NCBI GenBank assembly: GCA_964399915.1
Contig: CAYNRN010000004.1
Span: 2,362 to 46,924, forward strand
DNA length: 44,563 bases
Source: an uncultured Planctomycetales bacterium
GTDB lineage: Bacteria > Omnitrophota > Gorgyraeia > Gygaellales > Profunditerraquicolaceae
Direction of reading: 5' to 3'
Under the pieces are notes generated by a model. That model worked only from the letters and a program-made list of their open reading frames with translations. It was not told the origin of the DNA and made no database searches. Shown piece by piece: positions 35,005 to 44,563 of the stretch. Numbering within the stretch: the stretch's first letter is position 1; the number at the start of each line of letters is the position of its first letter. Position numbers and translations under genes: made by a program.

Positions 35005-35052
35005 TTGACAAAGAGACAAAAATTCTTATAATATAGTAAAATTTTACTATAT
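35005..35052 (+). promoter_or_regulatory. consensus sigma70 promoter with a 22-bp palindromic operator
   Basis: TTGACA (35005-10), 16 nt, TATAAT (35027-32). ATATAGTAAAATTTTACTATAT (35031-52) is a perfect palindrome. Confidence 0.85.
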
Positions 35053-35081
35053 AAATTTAACTATTAAATGAGGCCTAAATC

Positions 35082-35354
35082 ATGGATTGGGAGATTAAAA
35101 CGAAAGAGAAGTTGGAGCTGATGGTATCCAAAATCCCGGTATTTCACCGTCATATTACCGAGGCCGCAGTAACTGCCAGGGCTCAAGAATTGGCCAAACA
35201 AAGGAACTCCCCTTTAATAGAAGAACAGGATGTGGTGGGAGCGTTTTTTTCCGATGTGCCTTCGCCTTTTTACAGTATGATGGTGCGCCTCTTGGAGCAG
35301 GTGGGGTTTGACTATAAGAAATACGGTTTCCCCAGGAACGGCGGTAAAAAATGA
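35082..35354 (+). CDS. small PCP_red / DUF2621-like helical protein
   Basis: W...(A/T)K..L..M..KIP.F.R....A...A..LA pattern; 90 aa; first gene after the promoter. Confidence 0.55.
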   Translation: MDWEIKTKEKLELMVSKIPVFHRHITEAAVTARAQELAKQRNSPLIEEQDVVGAFFSDVPSPFYSMMVRLLEQVGFDYKKYGFPRNGGKK

Positions 35355-36382
35355 AGATTGCGGTCATCGGCGCAGGGGCAATAGGCAACCTTGTTGCCGG
35401 ATACCTCAAGCAAAAGGAAGAAGAGGTCTGCTTAGTCGGACGCCCGGATACGGTTAAAGCGGTAAATGAACATGGTTTAAAGATCAGCGGAGTAAGGGGC
35501 GTCTTTAACATTAGCCTTAGGGCGTTTGAACGCCTATCATTAAAGCCGGATTTGGCTATTCTTGCCTGTAAGACGCAGGATATAGAGCTGGTGCTTAAAG
35601 ATAGCGCTGCCCTGCTGAAAGAGGCTGCTTTAGTATCGGTGCAGAACGGCGTGCGCGCCGAAGAGATCATCGGCAGGTTTATCCCCAAAGAAAATATCAT
35701 CTCAAGCATCGTGATGTTCGGCTCTACCTATCTTGAGCCGGCCAAGGTAGTGCATAATTTTGAAGGTAGCTGGATCATCGGAAAATTAGACCGCCCCGGG
35801 CCGGACCGCAAGCTGATCGATATCAGCATGGTCCTGAATAAAATATTTCCGGTAGTGATCAGCGAGGATATTAAGGGGATGAAGTATCTTAAGATATTCG
35901 TCAATGCCAATAATTGCCTGGCAGCGATATTGGGAGTAAGTATGCAGGAGGCGTTTTCCGACTTCAATATCAGCCGTATCAGCATCGCCATCTGGAGGGA
36001 GGGTTTTGATATCGTTTCTACTGCCGGGATAAAGCTGGTTTCATTGCCGGGTTTTCCGGTTGAAAACATAACTAAGCTCACTTCGCTGCCGCCTGAAGAG
36101 GCGGCTAAGATTTTTTCCGGCATAATGTCTAAATTAAGTAAAGAGCCCTTATACGGCTCGATCTTACAGAGCATAAAGCGCCAGCGCTCTTCCGAAATAG
36201 ATTACATAAACGGGGAATTTACGGCCTTGGCAAAGCAGTACGGAATCCCCGCGCCTCTGAACAGCAAACTGGTAGAGATGGTGCATCAGGTTGAAAAGAA
36301 TAAAAAGTTTTTTACAAAAGAGGAATTAATGACAGCCACAAAGGAGCTATTGGATTCAAATGGTGGATACCCCCTTTCCTAA
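35351..36382 (+). CDS. ketopantoate reductase (PanE/ApbA) family oxidoreductase
   Basis: GAGAIG, LACKTQD, VQNG, K..VN, S.LQS...R.SEIDYING. Confidence 0.85.
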   Translation: MKIAVIGAGAIGNLVAGYLKQKEEEVCLVGRPDTVKAVNEHGLKISGVRGVFNISLRAFERLSLKPDLAILACKTQDIELVLKDSAALLKEAALVSVQNGVRAEEIIGRFIPKENIISSIVMFGSTYLEPAKVVHNFEGSWIIGKLDRPGPDRKLIDISMVLNKIFPVVISEDIKGMKYLKIFVNANNCLAAILGVSMQEAFSDFNISRISIAIWREGFDIVSTAGIKLVSLPGFPVENITKLTSLPPEEAAKIFSGIMSKLSKEPLYGSILQSIKRQRSSEIDYINGEFTALAKQYGIPAPLNSKLVEMVHQVEKNKKFFTKEELMTATKELLDSNGGYPLS

Positions 36383-42039: not shown

Positions 42040-42486
42040 ATGGGACATACGTGTAATTCAATCATTATCAACGCGCCTTATGAAAAGGTTTTTGATATCT
42101 CTAATGATATCGAGCGCTGGACAGAGCTTTTTGGCACAGAGTATAAAGAGGCGAAAGTATCGAAGCGCGAAGGCAATAAACTTACCTTCCGCCTCACTGA
42201 TGATGAAGGCAACAGCTGGCAGTCATACCGCCTGCTGTTTAAAGAGCATAATTTCGCCTATGCCCAGAAATTACCTCCGGAGTTTCCCTTTAAATACATG
42301 AAAATCATCTGGCTTTATACTCCCAAGGCCGGCGGTGTTGAGATGGCCTGGATTCAGCATTTTGAAATGGATGATAAGGCAAAATTTAACGACGCACAAG
42401 TAGAGGGTTTTATTAATAAGCACTCGCAGGATAACCTTAAAATTTTTAAGGCAACCATAGAGAAAGAAGCGGGTGTTGTAGCTTGA
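42040..42486 (+). CDS. SRPBCC aromatase/cyclase (TcmN/WhiE-ORFVI-like)
   Basis: GHT.NSI.INAP...FD..NDIE.W.ELF.EY, FRLT, SW.S.R, PF.YM.I.W.Y, W.Q.F.M are characteristic of monodomain ARO/CYC proteins. Confidence 0.88.
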   Translation: MGHTCNSIIINAPYEKVFDISNDIERWTELFGTEYKEAKVSKREGNKLTFRLTDDEGNSWQSYRLLFKEHNFAYAQKLPPEFPFKYMKIIWLYTPKAGGVEMAWIQHFEMDDKAKFNDAQVEGFINKHSQDNLKIFKATIEKEAGVVA

Positions 42487-43616
42487 AAAAAACGACTTTT
42501 TCCATACTTTGTATTGAAGCAGGCGTTCTTTCTTTTAGCGTAGCTGCAAGCGCAGCGCTGATTCCCTCTATTGCAAGTGATTTTTCCATTGAGCAGTTTA
42601 TCGCCGCAAGGATCGTCTGGCTCTATATGCTCTCATACGGCATAGCAGCCTTGTTTTACGGCCCGCTGATCCGGGCTTTTAACGCTAAAAAAGTAGAGCT
42701 GGTATTTTTTGCGCTCTTTGTGATCTCGAATTTCGCCGCCGCGGCAAGTAAGAGCATATTTTGGCTTTCTGCTTCCAGATTGATGATGGGGGTATTCGGG
42801 GCTTCGGTCATCCCGCTGGGGCTGATTATCATCGCCAAGCGCTGCCCTCTAGAATCGCGCGGCAGAATGGTAGGGGTATTTTTCGGTTGCGCATTTATAG
42901 CTTCGCTCTTAGGGTTATTTTTAAGCGGAGTTTTGCACTGGAGGATGGCTTACCTGCTCCCGGCAATTGCCGGTTCAGGCCTATGGGTAGCAATGCTGCT
43001 CTTCCTGCCTGATTTTAAAAAAGAGCAGGACGGTTTGAGTGTCAATTACCTGCGCGCCTTCAAAGACAGGCGCGTACTGACGGTCTTTTCTTATATATTT
43101 TTGGTCAGCCTGTTTTATCACGGCGTTCAGCAGTGGCTGGCGGTTTATTTTTCCATTGCTCTTTCGTATTCCCAGTTTTTGATCAGCATGCTGATTACGC
43201 TTACCAGCTTAAGCGGAGTCTTCGGCGAGCTAATCGGAGGGGTTCTGGCTGATTCTTTTGGCAGGCGCAAGACGGTAAATACGGGGATTATCCTGATGAT
43301 CTTAAGCGCCTTGCCGCTGATGCTGAAAATTCCGCTGATCTGGATTATCGCTTTGGCAATGGTTATCTGGGGCCTGGGCTGGACCTTTAATCATGCGGGG
43401 CTCTCTACTATGCTTACTGATTTACCTGCGGAATTCCTTAATGAAGCAGCAAGCTTAAACAGCGGCCTGCGTTTTCTTGCCGGCGGCGTGGGTGTTTGGC
43501 TGGCAGGATTAGTTATGCAAAAGAGTTTTGTATTCGGGTTTTCAACTTTTGCCTGCGGCTTATTTTTGCTGTTGATTATCGGTAATAAAGTAATTCAAAG
43601 GGAGGGGATAAAATAA
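42483..43616 (+). CDS. MFS transporter (probable exporter)
   Basis: About 12 hydrophobic segments; GVLADSFGRRK MFS motif A; ESRGR.VG. Confidence 0.9.
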   Translation: MKKTTFSILCIEAGVLSFSVAASAALIPSIASDFSIEQFIAARIVWLYMLSYGIAALFYGPLIRAFNAKKVELVFFALFVISNFAAAASKSIFWLSASRLMMGVFGASVIPLGLIIIAKRCPLESRGRMVGVFFGCAFIASLLGLFLSGVLHWRMAYLLPAIAGSGLWVAMLLFLPDFKKEQDGLSVNYLRAFKDRRVLTVFSYIFLVSLFYHGVQQWLAVYFSIALSYSQFLISMLITLTSLSGVFGELIGGVLADSFGRRKTVNTGIILMILSALPLMLKIPLIWIIALAMVIWGLGWTFNHAGLSTMLTDLPAEFLNEAASLNSGLRFLAGGVGVWLAGLVMQKSFVFGFSTFACGLFLLLIIGNKVIQREGIK

Positions 43617-44392
43617 TGGAAGCTAATTTAAAAGGTAAAACTGCGATCGTCACCGGCGCAAGCCGCGGAATAGGCAAGGCCTTGGCAGAAACAGTAGCTG
43701 GCTTAGGCGTAAATGTCGCTATAGCCGCGCGCCAGGAAGCCCCGCTTAAAGAAACCGCCGCAGAGATCGCCAAAAAATTCAAAGTCAAGGTACTGCCGGT
43801 TGCCTGCGATGTTACAAAGCTGCAAGACCTGGAAAACCTGGTTAATAAAGCTAGGAAAGAGTTCGGTAAGATTGATATTTTAATCAATAATGCCGGAGTT
43901 TCCAGCCAATACCCCTTTCATAAACAGCCGATAGAGGATTTTGAGAAACTTGCGCATACTAATTATTTAGGATATGTGCGCTTGATCCGCCTGGTAATTA
44001 ATGAAATGATGGAAAGAAAATCCGGGGCGATCATCAACATGGTTTCAGGCTCAACGCTCTGCGACCCGCTGCCCAGGAACTTCCTGGTCTATAGTTCGCT
44101 AAAGGTGGGCTTGCGCGCATTTTTAAAAGGGCTCTTCTGGGAAGTGCGCGATTACGGGATTAAGATTACTTCATTATTGCCGGGCGTTACGGATACCGAT
44201 TTGACCGGCAAATTAAAAGAAGTCACAGCCGATACTTCCCGGTTGATGTCTACGGAGGCAATTGAAAACGCGGTGAAGTTTGCCTTAACCGTGCCGGCAA
44301 ACGTCTGCCCTTTGGAGATTTCAGTAATCAATCAGCAAACACCCTGGACTGCCCCGGTGATCCCTTTTAAGCAGCAGCATCCGGATAAATAA
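43616..44392 (+). CDS. SDR family oxidoreductase (candidate ketoreductase)
   Basis: TGASRGIG, CDVT, NNAG, YSSLK (YxxxK), PG.TDT. Confidence 0.92.
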   Translation: MEANLKGKTAIVTGASRGIGKALAETVAGLGVNVAIAARQEAPLKETAAEIAKKFKVKVLPVACDVTKLQDLENLVNKARKEFGKIDILINNAGVSSQYPFHKQPIEDFEKLAHTNYLGYVRLIRLVINEMMERKSGAIINMVSGSTLCDPLPRNFLVYSSLKVGLRAFLKGLFWEVRDYGIKITSLLPGVTDTDLTGKLKEVTADTSRLMSTEAIENAVKFALTVPANVCPLEISVINQQTPWTAPVIPFKQQHPDK

Positions 44393-44563
44393 TGAATAAG
44401 CTTGATGCCCCCAATTTAAAGAAAAGATATTTGCTTTGGTTTTATAAAACCGCTAAAGAGGAGCTGGATAAGATTGAGAGAAAATTTACCCAGTCAGATA
44501 TTGACCGCATTGTTTTGGCGCAACTAAAAAAGGCTAAAACTAAAAATGACCTTTCAAAATTTA
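44392..44563 (+). CDS. hypothetical protein, truncated by the window end
   Basis: ATG overlaps the SDR stop (TAATG); open frame MNKLDAPNLKKRYLLWFYKTAKEELDKIERKFTQ.. runs to the end. Confidence 0.6.
   Translation, partial: MNKLDAPNLKKRYLLWFYKTAKEELDKIERKFTQSDIDRIVLAQLKKAKTKNDLSKF

Follow-up and report, generated by a model that had tools for sequence, protein, structure and literature searches.

A putative aromatic type II polyketide synthase operon of the non-actinomycete kind in Omnitrophota

An operon of eleven genes (A to K) in an uncultured bacterium of the Omnitrophota probably encodes a complete type II (aromatic) polyketide synthase (PKS) of the 'ancestral', non-actinomycete kind, judging from its sequence. 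The window, i.e., the whole stretch of 44,563 nt that was analysed, ends with its contig. The open reading frames of all eleven genes, each on the plus strand, are found where the initial annotation had placed them, and their family assignments are borne out by Pfam and NCBIfam (Table 1). From 35005 to 44392, they form a single co-directional, tightly coupled operon downstream of a promoter. Neighbouring genes overlap or are separated by at most 26 bases, with the exception of H and I if I starts at 42040, and D and E are translationally coupled. The initial annotation had proposed a single promoter, which stands as the sole 12/12 match across 34300-44563; the total of promoter-like sites in this region (15) equals the shuffle mean (15.0). 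The PadR-family gene could regulate the operon; five of 20 loci (L018, L021, L024, L034, L035) have a homologue ahead of the gene set. No RNA runs containing the stretch were found.

Table 1 Features of the operon and its flanks (positions refer to the window)
Feature	Position	Strand	Assignment	Details
PadR	34401-34970	+	PadR-family transcription regulator	PF03551 PadR, 53.1 bits; directly upstream of operon
Promoter	35005-35032	+	sigma-70-type promoter	TTGACA-16-TATAAT; within 111-base gap before gene A
A	35082-35354	+	small DUF2621/PCP_red-like protein	DUF2621, 27.6 bits (cut-off 27.7)
B	35351-36382	+	ApbA/PanE-family NAD(P)H reductase	PF02558 + PF08546; TIGR00745, 169.8 bits (cut-off 141.35)
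C	36360-36956	+	tandem TIGR04076 protein	two stretches, 98.5 bits (cut-off 33)
D	36960-38222	+	ketosynthase (KS-alpha)	active Cys170, His310, His347
E	38215-39444	+	chain-length factor (CLF, KS-beta), catalytically dead	KS fold, Cys replaced by Arg
F	39454-40914	+	class B (B12-binding) radical SAM enzyme	PF02310 + PF04055
G	40941-41180	+	acyl carrier protein (ACP)	PF00550 PP-binding; GVDSTEMVE with Ser (DS motif)
H	41180-41971	+	metal-dependent cyclase, OxyN/DpsY-type by context	PF04199, 102.8 bits
I	42040-42486	+	monodomain SRPBCC aromatase/cyclase, TcmN/WhiE type	Polyketide_cyc/SRPBCC
J	42483-43616	+	MFS transporter	PF07690 MFS_1, 128.3 bits
K	43616-44392	+	short-chain dehydrogenase/reductase (SDR)	PF00106 adh_short, 176.7 bits
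Cut ORF	44392-44563	+		ATG overlaps stop of K; ~130 aa in relatives

The further ORF cut by the window does start behind K as initially described, but since a homologue is found downstream of the gene set in just 6 of 34 loci, it is a family-level neighbour outside the conserved set. Its protein has no Pfam match. The nearest KS proteins (83-92% identical) carry the names Candidatus Omnitrophica or Omnitrophota, in line with the Omnitrophota-like host proposed earlier, and hypD, a hypE-like gene and a partial hypF in the window agree with the proposed hydrogenase maturation.

A careful maximum-likelihood tree (44 rows, 422 columns) was based on a small reference set, namely pairs from Streptomyces (three), Azospirillum and Bacillus and three named CLFs, with no ladderane or Iga-type sequence. 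In this tree, D is placed in the KS-alpha clade (support 100/99) together with the type II PKS KS-alpha proteins of Streptomyces, Azospirillum and Bacillus, and E in the CLF clade (100/100). FabF of E. coli, the genome's own FabF and three further FabFs are located on the opposite, FabF/FabB side (99/95). A quick tree of 63 rows gives the same result with support of 99 and 100 and leaves the aryl-polyene KSs outside. Both trees agree with the initial annotation, which had assigned the pair to aromatic type II PKSs. Among PDB chains, D is best matched by the act KS (1TQY_A, 390 bits) and by 6SMO_B (376 bits), which we take to be Photorhabdus AntD; FabF chains reach at most 354 bits. The Cys-His-His triad of D is the same as in the act KS (1TQY) and 6SMO_B. 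Like other type II PKS KSs, D carries STGCTAG and HGSST, whereas FabF has TAC and HGTST.

The dead site of E is marked by the changes Cys to Arg, His to an Asp-Gly context and His to Asn (VVADRASS, ISLDGLAL, MFGNLLG). It is only the tree that places E among the CLFs, against the pairwise scores: its best PDB chains are FabF (290 bits vs 244 bits for the act CLF). The motif AWF...GQVSI, initially taken as a CLF signature, sits upstream of the active site. In the sample shown, all nine CLFs have (A/S)WF and eight of the nine have GQ; both are absent from five KS-alpha proteins, and AWF from four FabF/FabB/APE rows. In place of the actinobacterial Gln, the CLFs of the gene set carry Arg at the dead site, or Lys in two loci. 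Among the 19 nearest single-domain representatives without the active-site Cys, 13 have Arg and one has Lys; three further ones retain Cys and are FabF-like. Arg is also found in the Azospirillum and Bacillus CLFs; the act CLF has Gln and AntE has Asp, according to the accessible part of PMC6638757. Actinobacterial systems are primed by this Gln; its absence from E leaves priming unexplained, which counts against the aromatic PKS reading. The nearest named CLFs belong to Clostridium beijerinckii/puniceum, Ktedonobacter racemifer and Archangium, known non-actinobacterial hosts of aromatic PKSs. The closest of these, from Clostridium, is just 43% identical to E and adjoins the gene-set clade in the careful tree with weak support (87/61).

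The cyclase H carries an HxGTHxDxxxH motif (VHIGTHLDYSFHYG) and is 46% identical to the cyclase in the type II PKS cluster of Bacillus bombysepticus. Its best plasmid match among those listed is from Priestia (45%) and a further one from Streptomyces NBC_00390 (38%), both inside type II PKS clusters; in the Priestia cluster, the cyclase gene is followed by an SRPBCC gene. At the level of family and context, the DpsY/OxyN-type assignment is thereby upheld. PF04199 also includes hydrolases (isatin hydrolase, kynurenine formamidase), which counts against the aromatic PKS reading. Gene I is readable from GTG 41968, the start initially given, but its orthologues begin at MGHTCNS, i.e., at 42040. 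Its TcmN-type assignment is well founded: TcmN (2REZ_A) is matched with E 1.3e-26 over 139 of 148 residues and 3TL1, 3TVR and 2KF2 with about 1e-23, followed by the next PDB chain at 1e-4. I retains the residues aligned with W28, Y35, W65, S67, R69, M91, W95, Q110 and N136 of TcmN (residue numbers and pocket roles as we take them to be), which suggests a pocket like that of TcmN/WhiE (2RER/2REZ, 3TVR, 2KF2). It differs from TcmN as a stand-alone protein of 148 aa without the O-methyltransferase domain. A second ACP, 37% identical to G, adjoins fabF on contig C8, which also encodes FabD and a FabG-like protein. FabD is single in the genome, as is the AcpS-type transferase, the one PPTase being encoded on C2.

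Among 18 orthologues of A, DUF2621 is found in 17 and PCP_red in 9. The predicted structure of A is all-helical (pLDDT 91.6), with 2L09 as the best PDB fold (E 0.15, prob 0.99). B is specific to the gene set and distinct from a second PanE-like gene on contig C16 (28% identical). Each repeat of C has three invariant Cys and an invariant His (C20, H22, C43, C76; C123, C145, H150, C179); a PDB fold search with its predicted structure (pLDDT 84.4) gave no match (best E 0.22). BchE and HpnJ are the best-scoring curated families for F and share its B12-binding and radical SAM architecture, but membership in either is ruled out because F falls well short of both cut-offs (196.1 vs 481.35 and 156.5 vs 577.6 bits). 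The best PDB chain for F is AprD4 (6FD2_B, 54 bits). Two observations count against the aromatic PKS reading: F is one of several radical SAM paralogues in relatives, and K, which shares 35% identity with E. coli FabG and 28% with two Streptomyces cluster KRs, is no nearer to known C-9 ketoreductases than to FabG.

The clostrubin (clr) and dendrubin (den) systems belong to the 'ancestral' type II PKSs of clostridia and Negativicutes (PMC7693217). Their hosts are likewise strict anaerobes, and their clusters combine a minimal PKS with TcmN-type and OxyN-type cyclases and one oxidoreductase, without oxygenase or methyltransferase (PMC7693217). No oxygenase family was found among the eleven genes either (Pfam, NCBIfam), as initially noted. 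Compared to clr/den, the Omnitrophota set adds the B12 radical SAM enzyme, the PanE-like reductase, the tandem TIGR04076 protein and the DUF2621-like protein. Its TcmN-type protein is monodomain, as reported for the clostridial branch, whereas those of den/ant/pcy are didomain. On plasmids of Priestia megaterium, Bacillus bombysepticus and Azospirillum brasilense Sp7, type II PKS clusters encode a KS 48-49% identical to D, an Arg-type CLF and a cyclase 45-46% identical to H, and Priestia shares the cyclase-SRPBCC order. In contrast, SAM methyltransferases, FAD or ABM oxygenases and a dedicated PPTase are part of these clusters, and radical SAM, TIGR04076, DUF2621 and PanE genes are found in none of them.

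In the proposed pathway, malonyl-CoA would be supplied by acetyl-CoA carboxylase, whose accA gene is found two genes ahead of the operon. The genome's only AcpS-type transferase would prime the ACP, and the single FabD would then load malonyl. From malonyl units, KS-CLF would make an unreduced poly-beta-ketone without a dedicated starter enzyme. I would close and aromatise the first ring; in TcmN, first-ring closure is C9-C14. The Zn-type cyclase H would close later rings, and the SDR K and the PanE-like reductase B would reduce carbonyls. F may catalyse a radical reaction that needs no O2 (C-methylation or oxidation), and the MFS pump J would export the product. The product is presumably polycyclic and tailored independently of O2; its identity and chain length, and what the radical SAM, TIGR04076 and DUF2621 proteins do, are likewise inferred.

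Of 301 Omnitrophota genomes sampled, 70 have a CLF orthologue (identity of 54% or more, E <=1e-144; next-best matches at most 43% identical), and 19 of the 20 loci examined keep the gene order of the whole set. Each of A, B, D, E, G, H, I and K is present in 18-20 of these loci (A, B and K in 19) and C in 14. The named genome of Ca. Velamenicoccus archaeovorus LiM and MAGs that bear the labels of other anaerobic phyla have the whole set in this order, too. In five genomes, the KS is 84/83/72/73/65% identical to that of G000 and FabF 75/73/67/62/60%; the KS is thus better conserved than FabF. Within one class of Omnitrophota, the set is probably inherited mostly vertically and kept by strong purifying selection; the MAGs labelled as other phyla share it.

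A FabF-derived KS pair with a non-aromatic product (an unusual lipid, a polyene or a ladderane-like chain), the 'cyclases' being hydrolases or lipid-binding proteins, is very unlikely. D does score 467.8 bits on the fabF model, just below the cut-off of 493.75, the best PDB chains of the CLF are FabF, and PF04199 and SRPBCC are broad families; both trees, however, group the pair with type II PKS KS-alpha and CLF, and the match of the SRPBCC protein is specific to TcmN/WhiE (1e-26 to 1e-23, next chain 1e-4). The B12 radical SAM gene beside the KS recalls ladderane-type clusters, and antiSMASH-based surveys list 'ladderane' clusters in Omnitrophota, according to the accessible part of PMC9902471. 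Yet F reaches 75.6 bits on rSAM_ladder_B12 (cut-off 360), the polyene KS chain 6KXD_A matches D with 242 bits (act KS: 390), aryl-polyene and Iga-type KSs are distant, and Pfam and NCBIfam detect neither a dehydratase nor an enoyl reductase in the set. The polyene or ladderane grouping that the initial annotation had weighed against its own reading is thus disfavoured.

Rather unlikely, too, is a type II PKS with a cell-bound, physiologically needed product (a redox carrier, pigment or membrane component) instead of an exported antibiotic. Such a product would account for the housekeeping-like conservation, as seen in the KS relative to FabF in the same five genomes, in F (74-90% identical across the 120 best protein clusters) and in the retention of the set by 32 of 40 other family members with genomes of about 1-2 Mb. 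Against this, the MFS pump is present in 17 of 20 loci, and the gene set is dispensable, because the 8 of 40 family members without it keep the YkuD-accA site. A UbiA-family prenyltransferase was not found in this genome (92% complete), which would fit a cell-bound product, but there is no inverse relation to UbiA: a UbiA-family gene is present in 57 of the 70 genomes that carry the set and in 159 of the 231 that do not. That the operon is foreign (a binning or assembly artefact) or a decaying relic is extremely unlikely. The source genome, a MAG, consists of 54 contigs, and this gene set is found under labels of several phyla, but the operon shares one 46.9-kb contig with purH, mnmE, EF-G and accA, YkuD-accA-PadR genes precede it in related genomes also, named, complete chromosomes of Omnitrophota carry the set (L058, L062), and all eleven frames are open with catalytic residues retained.

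As the initial annotation had anticipated, homologous clusters already appear in genome surveys: Candidatus Omnitrophica is among 14 phyla with KS-CLF hits in the accessible part of PMC10132072. New here are the Arg (vs Gln) at the CLF dead site, common to most of the nearest non-actinobacterial relatives, the spread over Omnitrophota, the kept gene order and the conservation of the KS above that of FabF. Ring-shaped aromatic polyketides are the antibiotic and pigment chemistry of Streptomyces. Here, what is probably a gene set for this type of chemistry is found in a tiny uncultured anaerobic bacterium. In many relatives of this bacterium the set has hardly changed, so it probably matters to them.

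The eleven genes of the set, designated A to K, lie on one strand and encode a small helical protein with a DUF2621/PCP_red-like domain (A), a PanE/ApbA-type reductase (B), a tandem TIGR04076 protein (C), a ketosynthase (KS-alpha, P0001; D), a chain length factor (CLF; E), a B12 radical SAM enzyme (F), an acyl carrier protein (ACP; G), a PF04199 cyclase (H), an SRPBCC aromatase/cyclase (I), an MFS transporter (J) and a generic SDR (K). Positions are listed in the table below. The run of coupled genes described in the initial annotation was found where it had been placed, and the family assignments agree with those proposed there. 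The KS and CLF genes overlap by 8 bases, and the GC content of the operon is even (0.45-0.50). Upstream of the operon lie, among other genes, hypD, a gene resembling hypE, the C-terminal part of hypF, purH, mnmE, EF-G and accA. In 5 of 20 loci a PadR-family gene precedes the gene set, and in one relative devoid of the cluster (L109) it adjoins accA. The open reading frame (ORF) cut by the window end was rejected as a cluster member.

Features of the window, in window coordinates unless a contig is named
Feature	Position	Strand	Remarks
Window	G000:C4:2362-46924		Contig end coincides with window end
HypF ORF	3893-5011		372 aa; C-terminal Kae1-like domains only, usual N-terminal half absent at that place
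hypD	5205-6299		
Two adjacent protein genes	6277-10606		796-aa TPR/DUF3857/transglutaminase-like protein, then 644-aa protein with N-terminal PilZ domain
hypE-like AIRS gene	14746-15753		About 8 kb of unrelated genes between hypD and this gene
ATP-grasp and radical SAM genes	16656-19880		Two tandem D-Ala-D-Ala-ligase-like ATP-grasp genes, then lysine-2,3-aminomutase-like radical SAM gene
GTP cyclohydrolase I gene	26912-28510		532 aa; split by an intein
PadR-family regulator gene	34401-34970		Between accA and the operon promoter
Sigma-70 consensus promoter	35005-35032		Sole 12/12 match of the region; precedes gene A
Gene set A-K	35082-44392	+	11 genes; junctions are overlaps or gaps of ≤26 bases
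Gene I (SRPBCC)			Most likely start 42040
Cut ORF	from 44392		Family-level neighbour; homologues in 6/34 loci

The source genome (G000) comprises 1.09 Mb in 54 contigs and is 92% complete. Proteins 83-92% identical to the window KS carry the names Candidatus Omnitrophica or Omnitrophota. The housekeeping FabF, FabD, FabG-like gene and ACP of G000 are encoded on a different contig (C8), and a single AcpS-type transferase is present. No RNA run was listed as covering positions 35005-44392; four runs labelled freshwater metagenome, presumably of DNA, contain at least half of the sampled words. Elsewhere in the window, a GC dip (0.43-0.44) at 26-29 kb coincides with the GTP cyclohydrolase I gene, where Intein_splicing, PT-HINT and LAGLIDADG_3 matches lie between two PF01227 halves.

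The KS carries the catalytic triad Cys170/His310/His347, which is kept in all 19 of 19 orthologues. Its STGCTAG and HGSST motifs are common to the KS-alpha proteins of Streptomyces, Azospirillum and Bacillus, the FabF counterparts being TAC and HGTST. Among solved structures, its best relatives are the act KS (390 bits) and 6SMO_B (376 bits), followed by FabF chains (all ≤354 bits). In the CLF, the catalytic Cys is replaced by Arg and both His residues are gone. The chain-length-factor signature noted in the initial annotation is present as AWF...GQ(V/I)(S/T)I and is confined to CLFs within the sequences sampled. Since the pairwise score of the CLF was closer to FabF (290 bits) than to the act CLF (244 bits), trees were built. 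The references were named sequences from plasmid and E. coli records, and the neighbours were collected by searching 1.84 billion representatives without a profile. A quick tree (63 rows) and a careful tree (44 rows, 422 columns, LG+C20) agree. In the latter, the window KS falls into the KS-alpha clade (100/99) and its partner into the CLF clade (100/100), with the FabF/FabB side supported at 99/95.

Three other identities were considered for the KS pair and its operon. A FabF-type component of type II fatty acid synthesis is suggested by the pairwise score of the CLF, and grouping with FabF, or with polyene or ladderane KSs, had been named at the outset as an outcome that would speak against an aromatic polyketide synthase (PKS); both trees place the pair apart from FabF, the fabF equivalog cut-off of 493.75 is missed by KS (467.8 bits) and CLF (374.3 bits) alike, and the genome has its own FabF on C8. 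An aryl polyene or Iga-type polyene type II PKS was rejected as well, as the aryl-polyene KSs of CFT073 lie outside the group of KS, CLF and FabF in the quick tree, the polyene KS 6KXD_A scores 242 bits and the gene set is without a dehydratase. A ladderane-type lipid cluster, marked by a TIGR04072 radical SAM enzyme, is likewise unlikely, with F scoring 75.6 against the rSAM_ladder_B12 cut-off of 360. The window encodes a predicted minimal PKS, composed of a KS-alpha with its triad, an adjacent Cys-less CLF, both placed in the respective clades, and an ACP that is dedicated to the gene set and has the Ser of the DS motif. Together with the cyclase matches and the gene content, the KS/CLF tree supports the initial interpretation as an aromatic type II PKS.

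Gln at the dead site of the CLF is an actinobacterial hallmark, linked to malonyl decarboxylation. Within the alignment it occurs solely in the three Streptomyces CLFs. Arg is found in 18/20 Omnitrophota CLFs and Lys in the other two, and G000 itself also has Arg. The CLFs of the Azospirillum and Bacillus plasmid clusters, the two that were aligned, likewise have Arg at this position, and their KSs are 48-49% identical to the window KS. Among the 22 nearest single-domain representatives, three keep the Cys and are FabF-like; the other 19 include 13 with Arg and one with Lys. Clostridium beijerinckii/puniceum, Ktedonobacter racemifer and Archangium are named among these nearest representatives. 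AntE is a proven CLF without Gln, with Asp at its dead site (PMC6638757); Gln therefore defines an actinobacterial subgroup rather than the CLF family.

Protein I, of the SRPBCC type, has the TcmN and WhiE aromatase/cyclases as its best matches, with E-values of 1e-26 to 1e-23 (TcmN 1.3e-26), the next chain following at 1e-4. It keeps the residues aligned with W28, Y35, W65, S67, R69, M91, W95, Q110 and N136 of TcmN. The cyclase H carries an HxGTHxDxxxH motif; its PF04199 match, this metal motif and homologues that lie within three type II PKS clusters make it a candidate cyclase of the OxyN/DpsY type. These homologues are 46% (Bacillus bombysepticus), 45% (Priestia, where an SRPBCC gene follows it as in the window) and 38% (Streptomyces) identical to H. 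Among the eleven genes, profile searches with Pfam and NCBIfam models revealed none that belongs to a dehydratase, enoyl reductase or oxygenase family. An 'ancestral' KS-CLF-ACP-TcmN-OxyN architecture has been reported for systems of anaerobes (PMC7693217), and the predicted gene content fits it. Plasmid-borne type II PKS clusters were also encountered in other non-actinomycetes, namely Azospirillum brasilense Sp7 (plasmid p3, L037), Priestia megaterium (L105) and Bacillus bombysepticus (L038). We know of no characterised products of these three.

The remaining genes of the set are less readily assigned. F is BchE/HpnJ-like and far below the curated cut-offs; an identity as BchE anaerobic cyclase was rejected (196.1 versus the TIGR02026 cut-off of 481.35). 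Identities to F range from 74 to 90% across the best 120 protein clusters. Its gene is found after the CLF gene, after K or before A. A single orthologue of F in every locus was also rejected, as one to four copies (E ≤ 1e-60) exist in each of five relatives and the identity of the linked copy is in many cases just 46-52%. In three genomes (G149, G141 and G216), the radical SAM gene is multi-copy, with up to four copies at E ≤ 1e-100, and the copy closest to F can be about 150 kb away from the PKS genes. Each repeat of C has three invariant Cys and one invariant His. The model of C, of good quality (pLDDT 84.4), was searched with Foldseek against the PDB, where none of 119 matches reached E ≤ 0.001 (best 0.22), and the ESM Atlas returned nothing but its own Omnitrophota clusters. 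For A, a fold search of the PDB likewise yielded no match at E ≤ 0.001. The best one, 2L09 (E 0.15, probability 0.99), presumably a PCP_red member, weakly backs the predicted likeness of A to this family. B is a second PanE-like reductase of G000. On a speculative and rather improbable reading, the four conserved extra genes (F, A, C and the Cys/His-rich protein gene aside, B) would encode a joint module that tailors aromatic polyketides independently of O2, doing in anaerobes what anthrone oxygenases and SAM methyltransferases do in aerobes. The resulting small molecule would be lineage-defining for Omnitrophota that are ultra-small and depend on prey, Ca. Velamenicoccus archaeovorus among them, and would serve for attack on host cells or redox exchange with them.

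Of 301 genomes sampled from the phylum, 70 have an orthologue of the CLF (≥54% identical); the matches that come next (≤43%) are at the level of FabF. All but one of the 70 genomes belong to the class of the window, and 32 of the 40 other family members have the orthologue. Among the 20 fetched loci, E and G occur in all, A, B, D, F, H, I and K in 19 each, J in 17 and C in 14. One locus (L028; G143:C1:984800-1004700) encodes the CLF, ACP, both cyclases, MFS, SDR and radical SAM enzyme, and the 6 kb upstream contain neither a KS nor A, B or C; its KS may be located elsewhere or have been lost. All eleven genes are found in the named LiM genome of Ca. Velamenicoccus archaeovorus (L062), which is complete, in five metagenome-assembled genome (MAG) loci labelled Planctomycetia, whose gene order and spacing match those of LiM, and in one labelled Deltaproteobacteria. 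Most genes of the set occur in MAGs labelled Thermodesulfobacteriota, Syntrophaceae, Syntrophobacter and Dehalococcoidales (all labels as deposited). The Omnitrophota copies form one group in each half of the tree (KS 96/93, CLF 89/91), nested in a wider clade (KS 99/97, CLF 98/87). In five family members with the YkuD-accA arrangement, the 4-12 kb of downstream sequence retrieved contain none of the eleven genes, which is compatible with either loss or gain. Apparent relatives of the query P0122 at 40-45% identity were discarded: in 11 of 25 examined loci (58 returned), a single KS was found, mostly next to an SDR gene, and these are FabF genes rather than the gene set.

In the same five genomes, identities to G000 are 84/83/72/73/65% for the KS, 82/78/68/69/55% for the CLF and 75/73/67/62/60% for FabF. 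The identity declines in near-identical order for KS and FabF, which is consistent with vertical descent under strong constraint. Judged by these values, the KS evolves more slowly than the housekeeping FabF. Such conservation is not usual in a 'secondary' metabolite cluster of 1-2 Mb genomes and suggests a product central to the way of life of these organisms. A replacement of prenylquinones by a polyketide quinone was considered, G000 itself being without a UbiA-family gene. The idea was dropped because the gene set and UbiA show no inverse relation across the phylum sample (UbiA-family gene in 57/70 genomes with the set and 159/231 without).

Omnitrophota are a phylum without isolates, and many members are ultra-small and host-dependent. 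To our knowledge, aromatic type II polyketides come almost exclusively from actinomycetes, and the product is known for just a handful of systems from anaerobes. One survey reports KS-CLF hits for 14 phyla, Candidatus Omnitrophica being one of them (PMC10132072). Beyond this one-word listing, the main texts searched yielded no description of the operon, and polyketides go unmentioned in the main text of two overviews of Omnitrophota. What is new is that about a quarter of the sampled Omnitrophota have kept the same operon gene for gene. Metaproteomes and metatranscriptomes exist for the LiM enrichment culture (PMC12583861), and since this culture also has the full gene set, the question is testable. 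The operon stands out by its conservation in an uncultured phylum with reduced genomes and by its oxygen-free accessory set, in which two uncharacterised protein families and the B12 radical SAM enzyme F stand in place of an oxygenase. Two questions can be approached through it: by what means aromatic polyketides are decorated in anaerobes, where O2 is not available, and how chain priming works with a CLF that has no Gln.
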